IMG/VR virus record: IMGVR_UViG_2724679140_000014
Strand: one strand, 5' to 3'
Source of the DNA: a virus
Lineage: Duplodnaviria; Heunggongvirae; Uroviricota; Caudoviricetes
Length of the DNA stretch: 13,036 nt
Shown: positions 1,978 through 8,154 of the stretch, piece by piece
Layout of the letters: every line of letters starts with the position of its first letter
How positions within the stretch are numbered: the stretch's first letter is position 1
Notes under the pieces: generated by a model
Seen by the model: only the letters and a program-made list of their open reading frames with translations
Told to the model about the DNA's origin: nothing
Databases searched by the model: none
Translations under genes and position numbers: made by a program

Positions 1978-2259
1978 TGGTGTGAGGCGTAACGCGATGA
2001 ACATAACAAAAAGCGCCCCGTTGCCGGAGCGCCCTTGCGAACAATTAACCTGCTGCGAAAAAAATGGATCAGTGCAGGGGAATTATATCAACCGTGTGGC
2101 GAAGCGCCACAATTGCCGGATAACAGGCAAAACAAAGGCCACCCGCTACGGTGGCCCCTCGACACAAGCTACACGTTATCCCCAACGCATGAGCATAGCC
2201 AACAATGCCACATTTGCGGCTGGTGGGCAATGTGATCAGTGTGCTGGCTTGCTGGTGGG

Positions 2260-2457
2260 CTATTCCTGCTCTTTAGTATCGCCATGCTGCGATGTTTTCC
2301 AGGCATGCGATCCCATTTTTGTGCGCCTGTACTCTTTAAGGAATTTCTCAAGAGCAAACGAACAAGGTGCGAATCTTTCCTGTTCTTGTTCGCTTACCGC
2401 ATTTTTGCGTTGTTTTTTCCTGGATGAGGATAATTTCTTTAATGATTTGTCAGTCAT
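2260..2457 (-). CDS. Possible small basic protein (65 aa), weakly supported
   Basis: ORF just downstream of the 2515-2694 gene on the same strand. It ends in ..KEQE like that gene, and the 3' end repeats the DNA motif TCCTGCTCTTT (2264-2274 and 2518-2528). Weak RBS. Confidence 0.2.
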   Translation of the reverse strand: MTDKSLKKLSSSRKKQRKNAVSEQEQERFAPCSFALEKFLKEYRRTKMGSHAWKTSQHGDTKEQE

Positions 2458-2514
2458 CGTATATACCTGTAACCCTGTGCGCCACAGTTCATCACTCCAC
2501 GGCGCTAGTGATGG

Positions 2515-2694
2515 TTACTCCTGCTCTTTGGCCTTGCGACGCTGGCGGCGTTTGATCTCGCCGCGCATGGCTGCACTTATAAACTGCCCTGTACTTTCGC
2601 CTTCTTCTTTCACGTTTTCCATGCCTTCAATAATTTCATGGGCAATACGTGCAGTTACAGATTGTGATTTTGCATTCTTTGGACCTGTTGCCAT
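2515..2694 (-). CDS. Hypothetical small basic protein (59 aa, MATGPKNAKSQ..RRQRRKAKEQE)
   Basis: Internal ATG of the 2515-2733 ORF preceded by a strong RBS (AAGGAG, 6-nt spacer); a promoter-like -35/-10 (TTCAAA/TATATT on the minus strand) and a GTGTAAGACA operator-like site lie immediately upstream. Confidence 0.45.
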   Translation of the reverse strand: MATGPKNAKSQSVTARIAHEIIEGMENVKEEGESTGQFISAAMRGEIKRRQRRKAKEQE

Positions 2695-2715
2695 GTCTAA
2701 CTCCTTATGTTGTTG

Positions 2716-2796
2716 GTGTAAGACAATATACACGAAAAAAAATTATTTTGAAGGCTTGACGTGTAAGACACTTGTATTTTACATTGTGTCTTACAC
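2716..2796. promoter_or_regulatory. Divergent promoter/operator region with three copies of a 10-bp GTGTAAGACA motif
   Basis: GTGTAAGACA at 2716-2725 and 2761-2770 (direct) and TGTCTTACAC at 2787-2796 (inverted); TTGACG -35-like at 2756-2761 on the + strand; minus-strand -35/-10 candidates at 2749-2754 and 2726-2731. Confidence 0.5.
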
Positions 2797-2893
2797 CTTG
2801 TTAATGCAAGGCACAGAAACGACGAAACCCCGCACTGTAGGAGCAGTAACGGGGCTTCTAACCACCAACGATAGCAGAAGTATCGAGGTAGCT

Positions 2894-3433
2894 ATGAGAA
2901 ATCATACCACACACCCGCAAGGGCGGGACTCGCACAACCTGAATAAAGCGGGTATGAAAAACCTGTTGATCGCCACTGCCAGCCAGGGCTATGATTTACC
3001 CGCACCAGCAAAATCTGGTGCCGGGATTGGCGTCCTGGTATTTAACGAAGCGCACAACACGCGCCCTGCGTGTTTTTTTGTGCCGGATAGTCACACCTTA
3101 TCAATGGTGGGCTGTATGGGGGCGGAGCAATCCGCGCCGGGTTCTTCGTTAACCGGTTACGCCAACCCTGTACAGTCCACCGCCAGCGAAATTGGCGTTT
3201 CCTGCGGTGGGTTTATTAAACCTAACGAAGAGGCTGCCAACATGGCTACTACCCCTACCCTTGTACATTCTCAAACTGCCTTTATCTGGCGCTTTATCAT
3301 CTTTGGCGCGTCAGAGTCCCAAATCATCCACGTCACCGCCTGGACGGAACGCGAAGCGCGTAACCATTGCCCGTCAGGTTGTGTCGCTGTATTCGCCGCC
3401 CGTATTCGCCAGGGGGTGCACCATGTGCAATAA
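2894..3433 (+). CDS. Possible CDS (179 aa) of unknown function; the coding part of a long stop-free frame
   Basis: 3' portion of the 483-aa ORF. GAGG 5 nt upstream of the ATG at 2894 and a hairpin (2822-2855) in the putative leader. Ala/Gly/Ser/Thr-rich composition is atypical, so this may be non-coding. Confidence 0.25.
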   Translation: MRNHTTHPQGRDSHNLNKAGMKNLLIATASQGYDLPAPAKSGAGIGVLVFNEAHNTRPACFFVPDSHTLSMVGCMGAEQSAPGSSLTGYANPVQSTASEIGVSCGGFIKPNEEAANMATTPTLVHSQTAFIWRFIIFGASESQIIHVTAWTEREARNHCPSGCVAVFAARIRQGVHHVQ

Positions 3434-3662
3434 CACCCGTCCGGACGCAGCCGCCGAAGCTATAAAAACACTGATTGATGCGCTGATTGATATTTCTGTT
3501 ATCGCAGACAAGGCGCATAAGTACGCCACCAGCGAAACAGAATATGCCGGGGCTTTCGTTCCTCACTCACTGGCTGTTATGCAACTTAGTGCTGATATGG
3601 CGCTGAATGAGGCTAAAGCAATCCTGATTGCTGATTGTGAAAATGGGGGGGGTTATGCGTGA
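3423..3662 (+). CDS. Hypothetical small acidic protein (79 aa)
   Basis: Internal ATG of the 3192-3662 ORF preceded by AGGGGG; protein-like helical sequence (AEAIKTLIDALIDISVIADKAHKYA..); stop overlaps the next start. Confidence 0.4.
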   Translation: MCNNTRPDAAAEAIKTLIDALIDISVIADKAHKYATSETEYAGAFVPHSLAVMQLSADMALNEAKAILIADCENGGGYA

Positions 3663-3888
3663 TGATCGTTTTAATGCCCTGAAACAGGAATTTGATGGCG
3701 TATCGGATGATGCGGGTGATGCGTTGCTGGTTGTTAATGACCTGATAAAGGCCGCATGTTTTTTAATTGGAACCACTGAGCATTCAGGAACAGGCAGCGA
3801 TATTCTCGTTATTGCGTCGGACTATGCTGAATATGTGGCAGAGGCACGTTACAGAAGAAAATTCCCGGAAGATGTAAGCCATGTGTGA
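3655..3888 (+). CDS. Hypothetical small acidic protein (77 aa)
   Basis: ATG at 3655 overlapping the upstream stop (translational coupling), preceded by a G-rich RBS. Confidence 0.4.
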   Translation: MRDDRFNALKQEFDGVSDDAGDALLVVNDLIKAACFLIGTTEHSGTGSDILVIASDYAEYVAEARYRRKFPEDVSHV

Positions 3889-4114
3889 TATTTACAATGA
3901 CACAGTAGACCGTGCATACCGTGCTCTTGCTTACAGTGAAAACATGCTTGAAATATTGCGCTTATGGCTTGAAACGCTTGGCGATAATGAAAGAGATAAA
4001 CGCAACAGCAATATTGCGACGGCGTTAATAACGCTTCTTGAGCCGGTAATAATGGAACTACAAGAAATAGACCTTTTGCACGACAGATATAAAGAACAAC
4101 ACACCGGGAAATAA
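3881..4114 (+). CDS. Hypothetical small protein (77 aa)
   Basis: ATG overlaps the upstream stop (ATGTGTGA); part of the same tightly packed operon. Confidence 0.45.
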   Translation: MCDIYNDTVDRAYRALAYSENMLEILRLWLETLGDNERDKRNSNIATALITLLEPVIMELQEIDLLHDRYKEQHTGK

Positions 4115-4119
4115 AAACC

Positions 4120-4434
4120 ATGAAACAGAAAATTTCTGGCTTTACTGCCAGCGGCCCCGCTCGGCCTGAAATCCGCCCCGGCGATATTTTCAAAGATAAA
4201 TATGGTGGACGAATAACGATAAAAACCGTTGACGATTTTCGCGTGACTTATATTCGCGAAGGTTATGCGCATCCCTGCGTGTCGTCACATATGCGTTTTG
4301 AGAGTGAATTCACCCTGGTAAGCAAAGCACCACCAGCGAACTTAAGCGACATCGACAGAATCATGCGCGTTACAGGTATGGAACGCATTAAGGCAGTACG
4401 TGAAATTATTCGTGAACGGGGAAAAGCAAAATGA
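4120..4434 (+). CDS. Hypothetical protein (104 aa) immediately upstream of, and overlapping, the replication gene
   Basis: ORF whose stop overlaps the start of the 710-aa gene (ATGA at 4431-4434). Confidence 0.5.
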   Translation: MKQKISGFTASGPARPEIRPGDIFKDKYGGRITIKTVDDFRVTYIREGYAHPCVSSHMRFESEFTLVSKAPPANLSDIDRIMRVTGMERIKAVREIIRERGKAK

Positions 4435-6563
4435 AACTGGCACCGAACGTAAAACTGTTACCGAAAGATAAAGGCGAGGATGCAGTGATTTTTGCGGGGG
4501 ATGACGCATACAGCCACGCAGAGCATTACATGCAGGGCGGAGAAGCCAGAAAGCGCGGCGACAAAATACCACCTGTTTATCTCGGACGGCGTGACCTGGG
4601 TAATCTGGAAAACCTGCGTATTGTGGATGAGGGTCGGTCACGCGCCATCGTCAGACGTGCCGGAAAACTGGATGACAAACTGGCGCTACAGATTGAAACC
4701 CTGCTGGCAGTGGCTGGTGTTAAGGAAGCCTGTTTTTGTGACGAGAACGGCGATTTACTGGAGGACTGGACACCACAGCTTGCCCGACTGAAAGACGAAT
4801 ACGAGCGCGGGGAAAGTCTGGTGTTGCCCTTAAAGAAAAAAATCACAGAAAACCAGGGCGATGATGAATTAAAGCCCCGCGTTGAAAGCCGCGCCGATGG
4901 TGTTTTCTGGGTAACGCCAAAAGTTGACAAGCAGTCAGGCGAAATTATCCGGCCTGAGACGTGGTTATGTTCCCCGCTTGAACTACTGGGAACGGGGACA
5001 ATCGGCAAAGAGCATTACCGCGTGATGCGCTGGAAGAAACCCGCAAACCATGAAGTCATCACAATGGCGGTTCCGTGCGGGGGCATTGGCGACCGTGACG
5101 GCTGGCGGTTGCTGAAAGACCACGGCCTGAACGTGACAACCAACGGCAAATACAGGGCTATCCTGGCTGACTGGATGCAGTTAAGCGGAAACCATGAGGA
5201 ATGGCAGTTAAGCACAACAACGGGCTGGCATTTTGGCGCGTACATCATGCCGGACGGTTCGGTCATTGGTGATTGCGAAAAGCCAGTCCTGTTTACCGGA
5301 AAAACGGCTGCTGTTAATGGTTATTCCGTGGCAGGAACGGCGGAGGGCTGGCGCGATACCGTTGCGCGGCTGGCTGGTGGTAATCCGTCCATGATGCTGG
5401 GTGTGGCGGTATCGTTATCTGCACCATTAATCGGGCTGGTGGGCGCTGACGGCTTCGGGGTACATCTTTTCGAACAGTCATCGGCAGGTAAGACCACAAC
5501 GCAGAACATCGCATCAAGTTTATGGGGAGAGCCGGACGCGCAGCGGCTGACCTGGTACGGCACAGCGTTAGGTATCGCCAACGAAGCAGAGGCACACAAT
5601 GACGGGCTTTTACCCCTGGATGAAATAGGCCAGGCCGGAAACGCGCGGGAGGTGTCCACGTCAGCCTATACGCTGTTTAACGGTTCCGGGAAATTACAGG
5701 GGGCGAAGGACGGCGGCAACAGGGAGATCAAACACTGGCGCACGGTGGCAATCAGCACCGGAGAAATGGACGTTGAGACATTCCTCAAAACGGAGGGGAT
5801 AAAAGTCAAGGCGGGGCAGCTTGTCCGCCTGCTTAACGTGCCAATGGAAAAAGCCACGCAGTTTCACGAATACAGCACCGGAAAGGCGCACGCAGACGCG
5901 TTAAAAGATGCCTGGACAGAAAATCACGGGGCGGCGGGGCGTGAGTGGGTTAAATGGCTGGCAGACCACCAGCAGGAGACAAAGGACACGGTAAGGGCAT
6001 GCCGTGAACGGTGGCGCAACCTGATACCGGAGAGCTACGGCGAGCAGGTACACCGCGTGGGTGAGCGTTTCGCCATACTGGAGGCCGCGCTTGTGCTTTC
6101 CGGTCATGTGACTGGCTGGGATGAGCAGGAATGCCGTGATGCCATTCAGCATAATTTTAATGCCTGGGTGAAGGAATTCGGTACGGGCAACAGGGAACAC
6201 AGGCAGATTATTGAACAGGCTGAGGCGTTTCTTGCGGCCTATGGCCTGAGCAGGTTCGCCCCTGTCAATTATGACCCTGCCAGCCTGCCGATTTCAGAAC
6301 TGTACGGCTACAGGGAAAGCGACGGGCGTTATGACGAGCCTGTTTTGTTTTACGTGCTGCCGGAGCCGTTTAGCTCACATGTGGCGAAGGGATTTAACAA
6401 GGATGCCGTAGCAAAGACCCTTCATGAAGCCGGAATGCTGAGAAAACCAGCCAGCGGGCGGGGATGGCAAATCAGGACACCACGACTAAAACACCTGAAA
6501 GGGGCGCGGCTAAGAGTGTATGGCCTTTTGCTGACACAGGACCACGATGCTGAAAATGATTAA
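4431..6563 (+). CDS. Satellite replication initiator: primase/helicase-like protein with a P-loop NTPase domain (DUF927/D5-like), 710 aa
   Basis: Large ORF with a Walker-A-like motif (FEQSSAGKTT), placed directly upstream of an iteron array as in PICI pri-rep modules. Family assignment is from recalled domain architecture, not a search. Confidence 0.75.
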   Translation: MKLAPNVKLLPKDKGEDAVIFAGDDAYSHAEHYMQGGEARKRGDKIPPVYLGRRDLGNLENLRIVDEGRSRAIVRRAGKLDDKLALQIETLLAVAGVKEACFCDENGDLLEDWTPQLARLKDEYERGESLVLPLKKKITENQGDDELKPRVESRADGVFWVTPKVDKQSGEIIRPETWLCSPLELLGTGTIGKEHYRVMRWKKPANHEVITMAVPCGGIGDRDGWRLLKDHGLNVTTNGKYRAILADWMQLSGNHEEWQLSTTTGWHFGAYIMPDGSVIGDCEKPVLFTGKTAAVNGYSVAGTAEGWRDTVARLAGGNPSMMLGVAVSLSAPLIGLVGADGFGVHLFEQSSAGKTTTQNIASSLWGEPDAQRLTWYGTALGIANEAEAHNDGLLPLDEIGQAGNAREVSTSAYTLFNGSGKLQGAKDGGNREIKHWRTVAISTGEMDVETFLKTEGIKVKAGQLVRLLNVPMEKATQFHEYSTGKAHADALKDAWTENHGAAGREWVKWLADHQQETKDTVRACRERWRNLIPESYGEQVHRVGERFAILEAALVLSGHVTGWDEQECRDAIQHNFNAWVKEFGTGNREHRQIIEQAEAFLAAYGLSRFAPVNYDPASLPISELYGYRESDGRYDEPVLFYVLPEPFSSHVAKGFNKDAVAKTLHEAGMLRKPASGRGWQIRTPRLKHLKGARLRVYGLLLTQDHDAEND

Positions 6564-6588
6564 TCTCGCGTGTAGGAGGTAAAAATAT

Positions 6589-6900
6589 GTTGTCCCAGTC
6601 GTCCCAGTAAGCAATAAGCAATCGTAACACATTGAATTACATATATTTCACTTACAAAAAGTGGGACAACAGCGGGACAATATTCAGGCATTTTGGGACA
6701 ACATAGCGGCATTTTGGGACGACACGACATGTATTTTTTACCGTGCTGGAGGGTGGGACAACACAAAAAACCTCATGTCGTCCCAAAATCGCCTTATGTC
6801 GTCCCACTTTGTGGAGTGTGTTTTTAATAAAATCAACAGGTTAACATTAAGTGGGACAACCGGGACAACTGGGACGACGTGTTTTGTATATATATATACG
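6589..6900. repeat. Iteron-type origin of replication: at least 13 copies of a 9-10-bp GGGACRAC motif in both orientations around AT-rich spacers, ending in a (TA)n tract
   Basis: Forward copies at 6661-6670, 6672-6681, 6693-6702, 6714-6723, 6753-6762, 6851-6860, 6861-6869, 6870-6878; inverted copies (GTYGTCCCA) at 6589-6598, 6599-6607, 6777-6786, 6798-6807; AT-rich blocks at 6608-6660 and 6880-6900 (GTATATATATATATAC). Confidence 0.7.
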
Positions 6901-6919
6901 AAAAATCGAGATCTGAACT

Positions 6920-7617: not shown

Positions 7618-8154
7618 ATGACAACGCTGACCATTAACCGAAAACCGAAAGGCATTTACGGCACGCAGTCAGAAACGACGCAGGCGGCACAGCAGCAGGA
7701 TAAAACCACATCGGCGCATAAAGTGATACCCGGCAATCAGAACGCACAGCAGAGCCGCAAAGGGCAGCCCACAGGGGTGACACCGTGGCGGCATATGACC
7801 AAACGCCAGCGCAAAAACCGCAGACGCGTTAACCGCCTTATTGAGCTGTGGCCTGATTTATTCAGCCGGGAAACACCGAAGCCGCTTAAGGTGGGGATAT
7901 TCGACGACCTGATGCAGGATCTCGCCGTCAGGGGGCTGGCATTCGGGCCAGGGGCATTACGTGCGACGCTGGCATCTTATGCGCAGTCTCCGCGCTATTA
8001 CCGCGCCTTAATGGCTGGTGGTGCACGTTACGACCTGAAAGGCCAGCCATGTGGGGAAGTGACACCACAGGAACAGCAGGAGGCAGAAACGCGGCTGGCA
8101 GCACTGAATGAAAAGCGCAAACGTCAGGCGACAAAGGAGAGGACAGGCGCATGA
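7618..8154 (+). CDS. ProQ/FinO-domain RNA-binding protein (RNA chaperone-like), 178 aa
   Basis: Core region LIELWPDLF..PKPLKVGIFDDL....ALRATLASYAQSPRYYRAL..GGARYDLKGQPCGEVT matches the ProQ/FinO fold signature as in E. coli ProQ (..[43 protein letters not shown]..). Confidence 0.75.
   Translation: MTTLTINRKPKGIYGTQSETTQAAQQQDKTTSAHKVIPGNQNAQQSRKGQPTGVTPWRHMTKRQRKNRRRVNRLIELWPDLFSRETPKPLKVGIFDDLMQDLAVRGLAFGPGALRATLASYAQSPRYYRALMAGGARYDLKGQPCGEVTPQEQQEAETRLAALNEKRKRQATKERTGA

Follow-up and report, generated by a model that had tools for sequence, protein, structure and literature searches.

The DNA analysed in this work, called the window throughout, is a stretch of 13,036 nucleotides (nt) from the virus record IMGVR_UViG_2724679140_000014 of IMG/VR. 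It carries four small open reading frames (ORFs), ORF1 to ORF4, directly in front of a replicase gene. With a probability of roughly 70%, we regard these ORFs as cistrons that are translated separately and belong to the early replication operon, under the control of a C4-type RNA switch, of a phage-inducible chromosomal island (PICI) or P4-like satellite of Escherichia coli. The operon begins with a candidate promoter, which is followed by an RNA of the isrK/seqA type with its terminator, an RNA of the C4/CI type, an Icd-like ORF, ORF1-ORF4, a DUF927 replicase gene and iterons. Judged from this gene order, the architecture is of a known kind, namely the early operon of a P4-like satellite or PICI under C4-type RNA control, and its genes are already present in the island EcCICFT073. 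The protein families themselves are uncharacterised.

The chain of small genes

The first cistron of the chain is the Icd-like ORF (3242-3433, + strand, 63 amino acids (aa)), which matches NCBIfam NF033153 (E 2e-16) and phrog_1743. Its end overlaps the start of ORF1 by 11 nt (ATGTGCAATAA). The genes ORF1 (3423-3662, 79 aa, pI 4.5, phrog_5146), ORF2 (3655-3888, 77 aa, pI 4.5, phrog_24341) and ORF3 (3881-4114, 77 aa, pI 4.7, phrog_2196) encode acidic proteins, and ORF4 (4120-4434, 104 aa, pI 10.0, DUF4222) encodes a basic one. All of them lie on the + strand, as does the gene of the primase/helicase-type replicase (4431-6563, 710 aa; DUF927, Pfam PF06048, E 8e-46). These coordinates confirm an earlier note on this DNA, which had described four ORFs running into the replication gene. 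The overlapping stop and start codons reported there are found at the ORF1/ORF2 junction (ATGCGTGA, 8-nt overlap), at the ORF2/ORF3 junction (ATGTGTGA, 8-nt overlap) and between ORF4 and the replicase gene (ATGA, 4-nt overlap), but not between ORF3 and ORF4, which are separated by a gap of 5 nt (TAA-AAACC-ATG). The first three proteins had also been called similar-sized, acidic and helical-looking; the size and the acidity (pI 4.5-4.7) hold, and a helical character is predicted by an AlphaFold model of low confidence that covers ORF1 and ORF2. The head of the operon, with the isrK RNA, the C4 RNA and the Icd-like ORF, and the variable poly-G junction described below were absent from that account.

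The coding nature of the ORFs was assessed from the ratio of nonsynonymous to synonymous substitutions (dN/dS). The relatives comprised 82 stretches from IMG/VR found via the junction pattern together with E. coli genomes; 74 segments were aligned, and the ratios cover 36-44 distinct relatives per ORF, with only 6 for ORF4. The in-frame ratios are 0.26 for ORF1, 0.34 for ORF2, 0.31 for ORF3, 0.26 for ORF4 and 0.47 for the Icd-like ORF, whereas the two other frames of ORF1-ORF4 give values of 1.0-2.0. The lengths of the ORFs and the types of their junctions recur across dozens of loci. ORF1-ORF4 are genuine protein-coding genes under purifying selection. The alternative that they are chance open frames in a transcribed leader, from which no protein is made, can be dismissed for practical purposes. 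Nothing speaks for it except the missing annotated function, and it is refuted by dN/dS values of 0.26-0.34 in frame against values above 1 out of frame. The hundreds of homologues of constant length, the conserved lengths and junctions and the Pfam match of ORF4 also contradict it. The earlier note had named a lack of conservation of these ORFs, or of their reading frames, in related islands as the observation that would overturn its description; both the ORFs and the frames are kept.

The segment is matched by 1072 of the 5426 complete E. coli genomes. Among the GTDB species representatives, relatives are encoded by E. ruysiae and S. flexneri alone, and a complete scan of 1.84 billion cluster representatives with HMMER yielded only 62 related clusters. 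The tblastn searches of 50,697 phage genomes with the ORF1-ORF2 fusion and with ORF3 gave no match. By these searches, ORF1-ORF3 are island-specific proteins.

The predicted RNA switch at the head of the operon

The candidate promoter is a sigma-70-like pattern match (TTGATC-18-TATGAT; 2966-2995, + strand) from a consensus scan, located just 5' of the isrK element. The isrK-family RNA, the counterpart of P4 seqA, spans 3002-3078 on the + strand (Rfam RF01394, 80 bits against a gathering score of 50). It ends in an intrinsic terminator, with the stem at 3056-3074 followed by a T-run, which was detected by a terminator scan on the same strand. The C4 antisense RNA, the counterpart of P4 CI and P1 c4, follows at 3100-3187, also on the + strand (Rfam RF01695, 75.3 bits against a gathering score of 45), with a predicted fold of -45 kcal/mol. 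Two single-stranded recognition elements, one in a loop at 3143-3152 and one at 3159-3165, are exactly complementary to targets on both sides of the RNA. The element at 3143-3152 pairs with 3042-3050 inside isrK and with TAACGAAGA at 3223-3231 downstream; the element at 3159-3165 pairs with 3027-3033 inside isrK and with TTGGCGT at 3192-3198 downstream. All four target sites were identified by complementarity on the + strand. The downstream target TAACGAAGA overlaps the Shine-Dalgarno (SD) sequence of the Icd-like ORF, GAAGAGG (3227-3233). The variable element covaries with both of its targets in the relative L029, position for position: where the window reads TAACGAAG / CTTCGTTA / TAACGAAG, L029 reads GTCAAAGG / CCTTTGAC / GTCAAAGG. 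The window hence contains the marks of a C4/CI immunity operon, namely a sense-strand C4 RNA in the leader, two-sided targets, a site that covers a ribosome-binding site (RBS) and an adjacent Icd-like ORF. The C4 and isrK models are known to detect relatives of P4 CI and seqA in Gram-negative PICIs (PMC10111431).

The strength of the SD sequences differs along the chain. The calculated anti-SD pairing is -10.7 kcal/mol for ORF1, which has a G-rich SD, -11.1 kcal/mol for ORF2, -3.5 kcal/mol for ORF3 and -4.3 kcal/mol for ORF4, against a background of -3.3 +/- 2.7 kcal/mol. The SD of ORF2 is the strongest in the operon, and those of ORF3 and ORF4 are at the background level.

We propose the following course of events. 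Transcription from the promoter near 2966-2995 would either stop at the isrK terminator or read on. The C4 RNA, processed from the same transcript, would pair with the sites in the isrK region and at the RBS of the Icd-like ORF, and the chain would be silent in the quiescent island. The pairing is expected to block the translation of the Icd-like ORF and/or to cause premature termination. The block would then spread by translational coupling and polarity to the four small genes and the replicase gene, because the start of each downstream cistron overlaps or adjoins the stop codon before it and the SDs of ORF3 and ORF4 are at the background level. The untranslated RNA would be open to Rho, as for P1 immI and P4, whose immunity paradigms are the source of both the RNA block and the Rho polarity in this proposal. 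If transcription outruns C4 after a helper-triggered activation, the whole chain would be made in a fixed order just before replication. The predicted repression of the downstream genes by C4 rests on sequence prerequisites, namely the ORF overlaps and the weak SDs of ORF3 and ORF4.

Several points weigh against this assignment. ORF1, ORF2, the Icd-like ORF and the replicase gene each have an SD-like sequence of their own, so that independent initiation is possible and the coupling may be partial. The Rho-dependent polarity is assumed from the literature on P1 and P4. The C4 and isrK RNAs score above the gathering score in only 3 of the 14 sources scanned with Rfam (the window, L023 and L029), and the Rfam scan of EcCICFT073 gave neither of them above the threshold. 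The ORF module thus does not always come with RNA immunity, and the idea of C4/isrK as its universal partner, with 2 of the 13 related loci positive and EcCICFT073 negative, was rejected. Neither homology nor experiment assigns a function to ORF1-ORF4. The AlphaFold model of the ORF1-ORF2 fusion is of low confidence, and part of the run-length variation at the poly-G junction could be homopolymer sequencing error.

Two longer frames run through the RNA genes. One is open on the + strand from an ATG at 2894 through isrK and C4 to the stop codon of the Icd-like ORF (2894-3433, 179 aa), and this long form is matched by phrog_29966 (188 aa). The N-terminal sequence of the long form, MRNHTTHPQGRDSHNLNK, matches that of the Icd-like protein (66 aa) in EcCICFT073. 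Since the latter island has no isrK or C4 above the threshold, the isrK-C4 block looks like an insertion within an Icd-like ORF. P4 CI is likewise situated within a larger ORF. The other frame, a GTG-initiated ORF of 483 aa (1982-3433, + strand), spans both RNA genes and a region that is non-coding or coding on the opposite strand in the relatives. It is almost certainly not a gene; in comparison with the relatives, coding conservation is confined to the final 63 codons, which form the Icd-like ORF.

The poly-G junction between ORF1 and ORF2

The ORF1/ORF2 junction contains a homopolymer of eight G residues (G8; 3645-3652, + strand) that is predicted to be the SD element of ORF2 and to be hypermutable. 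The length of the tract was determined in two samples. The loci retrieved with the junction pattern contain G7 in 23 cases, G8 in 34, G9 in 18, G10 in 4, G11 in 2 and an interrupted tract in 9. A sample of 72 loci anchored on ORF3, which is independent of the junction pattern, gave a similar range (13 G7, 22 G8, 8 G9, 3 G10, 1 G11 and 8 interrupted tracts). With G8 or G11, two proteins are encoded that overlap at ATGCGTGA, and the window belongs to the G8 form. A tract of G7 or G10 leads to a fusion of ORF1 and ORF2 with 154-155 aa, and G9 lengthens ORF1 by 7 aa to 86 aa. ORF2 is intact at every run length. The 60 nt around the tract (3633-3692) are 98-99% conserved at the nucleotide level, compared with 58-86% for the body of ORF1. 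The run length differs within 7 of the 12 clusters whose 690-nt flanks are at most 0.5% divergent, and the nearest neighbour has the same run length in only 34 of 74 cases. The differences within near-identical clusters imply that the tract changes far faster than by point substitution. The predicted RNA structure of the junction is not different from that of shuffled sequences (z -0.78).

Initially, ORF1 and ORF2 were read as the two halves of one gene of about 154 aa, broken by a +1 frameshift in the poly-G tract; in truth, there would then be three small genes, and the break would be due to a pseudogene, a sequencing error or an off-state. The nearest complete genome, which is 99.2% identical, indeed has G7 and one annotated coding sequence of 154 aa. 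A 154-aa family, phrog_2512, exists in PHROGs, about 29% of the distinct loci are in the fused frame, and the best 120 matches to the fused query are 150-156 aa long, bar two longer ones. The latter list is biased, however, since the fusion itself was the query. The contig counts point the other way: the exact ORF1 protein is found on 125 contigs and the exact ORF2 protein on 154, against 5 contigs with the matching fusion, and each half of the CFT073 type is found on at least 1000 contigs, compared with about 40 for fusions. The split two-ORF form is dominant. EcCICFT073, which helper phages were shown to mobilise (PMC6092414), carries G8. None of the nine interrupted tracts, which should be less prone to mutation, is in the fused frame, and 6 of them are in the frame of G8. 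Most of the divergent relatives are single-domain proteins, and those resembling ORF2 start at the equivalent methionine. In addition, 14 E. coli loci and E. ruysiae hold another ORF between ORF1 and ORF2, with the G-run and ATGCGTGA kept. ORF2, finally, has the strongest SD of the operon and stays intact at any run length. The broken gene was dropped on the contig counts, the G8 tract of EcCICFT073, the interrupted tracts, the single-domain relatives and the inserted ORFs, and we consider it very unlikely.

A length-variable tract is also present in islands without ORF1 and ORF2. The loci L101-L103 have a different ORF of 66-70 aa in front of ORF3, with a poly-G tract about 10 nt upstream of the ORF3 start. 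This tract is G8 in L101 and L103 and G7 in L102, and its length alters the end of the upstream ORF. Length-variable G-runs at cistron junctions thus recur in the operon.

Loci of simple-sequence contingency are recognised by a homopolymer of at least about seven nt near a reading frame that is polymorphic among close relatives, and the present tract varies from G7 to G11. It might be a true contingency (phase-variation) switch between separate proteins, an extended ORF1 and a fusion, which would alter the interaction with the helper or the downstream expression. Such a switch is compatible with separately translated cistrons as the best explanation and would add a function to it. It would account for the run-length differences in 7 of the 12 clusters and between nearest neighbours, and for the fact that all three frames are populated while ORF2 is intact in each. 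A pure G-run has been kept in alleles whose proteins are up to 50% divergent, though synonymous GGN codons exist, and the surroundings of the tract are far more conserved than the ORF1 body. The second polymorphic G7/G8 tract, at another ORF junction of islands without ORF1 and ORF2, fits as well. On the other side, the dominance of G8 by contigs also agrees with a mutable SD element that is selected for one length, with mutational and sequencing noise around it. Interrupted tracts exist, the junction RNA structure is ordinary, and the phenotype and the switching within a strain are conjectured from sequence. A contingency switch is thus possible but rather doubtful, and somewhat more doubtful still is the stronger form, in which the tract is a selected, reversible switch of the satellite and its carriers are a mix of separate, tail-extended and fused ORF1/ORF2.

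The homopolymeric phase variation of Neisseria and Haemophilus shares with this tract a G-run of at least seven nt at a coding junction, whose length varies among near-identical sequences and changes the frame. The difference is that the tract of the window fuses two cistrons or alters a tail of 5-12 aa; ORF2 keeps its own start, and no gene is turned off. In the literature, we found no description of a variable G-tract that turns two cistrons into a fusion.

The proteins ORF1-ORF3 and their cassette-like arrangement

ORF1-ORF3 gave no informative match in Pfam, NCBIfam, PADLOC or the PDB sequences, and their PHROG families are all annotated as of unknown function. Paralogy among the three was considered and rejected, as BLASTP and hhalign gave nothing. 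A literature search found no paper on these ORFs. The fused ORF1-ORF2 protein was modelled with AlphaFold as all-helical, with a mean pLDDT (predicted local distance difference test) of 48, a low value that is due to the shallow alignment. In this model, each half would form a helical hairpin, and the G-tract would encode an unstructured Gly-Gly linker between them. The existence of natural in-frame fusions, which are tolerated, makes a joint action of ORF1 and ORF2 probable.

The module precedes four types of replicase, namely a RepA-like type (47 loci), two primase types (25 loci together) and DUF927 (4 loci). The subtypes of ORF1, the length variants of ORF2, the variants of ORF4 and the replicase types reassort freely. 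In the ORF3-anchored sample, ORF1 and ORF2 are adjacent in 55 of the 72 loci, 14 have an ORF of 127 aa between them, and in 3 a different ORF of 66-70 aa replaces both. ORF3 is replaced in E. ruysiae. This pattern suggests that ORF1-ORF3 are arranged as exchangeable cassettes. The G+C content is 0.55 in the Icd-like ORF and the replicase gene compared with 0.40-0.49 across ORF1-ORF4, with the minimum in ORF3; the low values are consistent with a cassette origin different from that of the flanks.

The earlier note had further suggested that small proteins at this position often mediate helper sensing, derepression or interference. Neither homology nor structural evidence connects ORF1-ORF4 with such roles. 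As to the position, the counterpart slot in P4 does hold epsilon and has similar 8-nt overlaps, but no significant similarity of the ORFs to epsilon, orf151 or orf106 was detected. We infer that ORF1-ORF3 most likely bind helper or host proteins, for derepression, interference or takeover, rather than DNA. A protein-targeting role is favoured because the three proteins are acidic, island-specific and exchangeable and occupy the anti-repressor slot of P4.

ORF4, the replicase and the predicted origin

Residues 16-67 of ORF4 match DUF4222 (Pfam PF13973) with 66.3 bits against a cut-off of 27 (E 1.8e-18). The predicted fold is a five-strand beta-barrel (residues 23-68) of the SH3/Tudor/KOW-like kind, followed by two C-terminal helices, and the modelled barrel resembles the Tudor domain of the UvrD/PcrA helicases. 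Whichever type of replicase follows, DUF4222 nearly always occupies the position of the last cistron in front of its gene, with the ATGA overlap. The four replicase types share their N-terminal 130-140 aa with 38-66% identity (4431-4850 in the window, compared with L003, L004 and L089). The conservation of the cassette thus reaches into the replicase gene, within which recombination breakpoints lie. The shared N-terminal domain is a candidate partner of DUF4222, which is most likely an accessory or adaptor of the replicase.

Directly 3' of the replicase gene, at least 12 copies of an iteron-like sequence, TGGGAC(A/G)AC, occur in both orientations (6582-6885). They are followed by an AT-rich palindrome (TTTTGTATATATATACGAAAAA), the whole region being 6582-6905. 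The iterons and the palindrome probably constitute the replication origin.

It is conceivable that all four small proteins are replication accessory factors, such as an initiator cofactor, a helicase loader or origin-binding subunits, and not proteins of helper or host interaction. The ORFs lie directly upstream of the replicase gene and would be co-translated with it, and an iteron origin follows. The near-constant place of DUF4222 before any replicase type with the common N-terminal 130-140 aa and the likeness of the ORF4 barrel to the UvrD/PcrA Tudor domain fit this as well. We nevertheless regard it as unlikely for the set as a whole; the finding would be routine if the proteins were ordinary replication accessories.

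Comparison with P4, P1/P7 and EcCICFT073

The window shows the features of a PICI of the EcCI type, namely an integrase ORF (1-1242), AlpA with a Pfam match, a unidirectional early operon, a replicase and origin-like iterons. A near-identical island in L001 adjoins tRNA-Pro. Other genes of the window (SSB, ProQ/FinO, PerC and DUF1441) are also PICI-like. An island of this type would be induced and packaged by a helper phage.

The left (alpha) operon of P4 has the same order: seqA of the isrK family, the CI RNA of the C4 family, the "cI ORF", epsilon, orf151, orf106 and the alpha primase. The Rfam matches in P4 are at 8615-8692 for isrK and at 8420-8507 for C4, and P4, like the window, has an AlpA/Vis-type gene upstream of the isrK-family element. 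The C-terminus of the P4 "cI ORF" and the Icd-like ORF of the window have phrog_1743 in common. The small ORFs of P4 are joined by the 8-nt overlaps GTGCGTAA and ATGTTTGA, which correspond to ATGCGTGA and ATGTGTGA in the window. Epsilon, annotated in the P4 record as the helper derepression protein, belongs to phrog_10016, outside the phrogs of ORF1-ORF3. The replicase of the window is of the DUF927 type and not P4 alpha; no sid, delta or psu was seen in the window, which has PerC, SSB, ProQ/FinO and DUF1441 instead, and no poly-G junction occurs in the P4 overlap contexts that were read. A homology of ORF1 to epsilon was rejected as well: the local match of 22 aa (36% identity, E 1e-3 in a search of 5 proteins) was treated as chance, and the probability of the profile comparison, 13.5% with profile A1, falls to 0.6% with the broader profile A4.

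In the immI region of P1 and P7 (c4, icd, ant1/ant2), the C4 RNA also has two elements, each with an upstream and a downstream site. The downstream site likewise covers the RBS of icd, and the downstream genes depend on icd translation in P1 and P7. The covariation of one element between the window and L029, in the style of heteroimmunity, parallels that between P1 and P7. Unlike P1, where icd is followed by the Ant antirepressor, the window has four unrelated small ORFs and the replicase gene, and its isrK-type terminator element before C4 is a further difference, which it shares with P4. The c4 antisense mechanism of P1 and P7 was reportedly worked out by Citron and Schuster in 1990 and by Biere et al. 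in 1992, and the logic of P4 CI with its seqA and seqC targets is said to have been described by Sabbattini et al. Heinrich et al. 1994 is among the references of PMC8546580.

The chain of EcCICFT073 is homologous throughout: it comprises an Icd-like ORF, ORF1-like (49% identity), ORF2-like (59%), ORF3 (73%) and DUF4222 (52%) genes, a replicase gene, SSB and PerC. Both islands have the same G8/ATGCGTGA junction and conserved stop/start overlaps, and the operon is unidirectional with AlpA upstream. EcCICFT073 differs in an extra ORF of 76 aa after the Icd-like ORF, in its primase-type replicase and in the lack of C4/isrK above the Rfam threshold. Its small ORFs appear only as hypothetical proteins in the database annotation and in passages of PMC6092414 (Fillol-Salom et al. 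2018).

Other genes of the window

A small gene of the YlcI/YnfO family (2515-2733, - strand) is located between alpA and the RNA genes, and it has the same place in EcCICFT073 and other relatives. Promoter-like sites are present near it on both strands around 2725-2804. The gene may encode a divergent regulator. A ProQ/FinO-domain protein of the RNA chaperone class (7618-8154, + strand, Pfam E 1e-24) is encoded in the same island as isrK and C4. Two ORFs of the PerC family lie on the + strand, one at 8151-8438 with a Pfam match and one at 12728-13036 that matches a gene of L001 annotated as PerC. Two further ORFs have similar N-terminal motifs of helix-turn-helix type: the ORF at 8731-9279 (+ strand) corresponds to a DUF1441-annotated gene in L001, and the other is at 9966-10568 (- strand). 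Long ORFs are absent from 9300-9960 and 10570-11900, and the right-hand part of the window is perhaps a second or degenerate module.

Biological meaning of the operon

Gram-negative PICIs are widespread in E. coli, and the interval between AlpA and the replicase has so far been treated as encoding hypothetical proteins. The four genes of this interval can now be placed in a regulatory frame, in which an RNA immunity switch of the P4/P1 type with covarying specificity is followed by a coupled chain that leads to the replicase. The G-tract is a warning for annotation, as the same locus is called one gene or two, and it is a candidate for phase variation. If the tract were a true switch, the forms of ORF1/ORF2 would differ in their helper or host target or in the translation that reaches the replicase. 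This would amount to bet-hedging in the early operon of a satellite, with the ORF array serving as a system of cassettes by which particular helpers are sensed or interfered with. Since ORF1-ORF4 are island-specific, cassette-like and under selection, they are obvious candidates for helper-sensing or interference functions.

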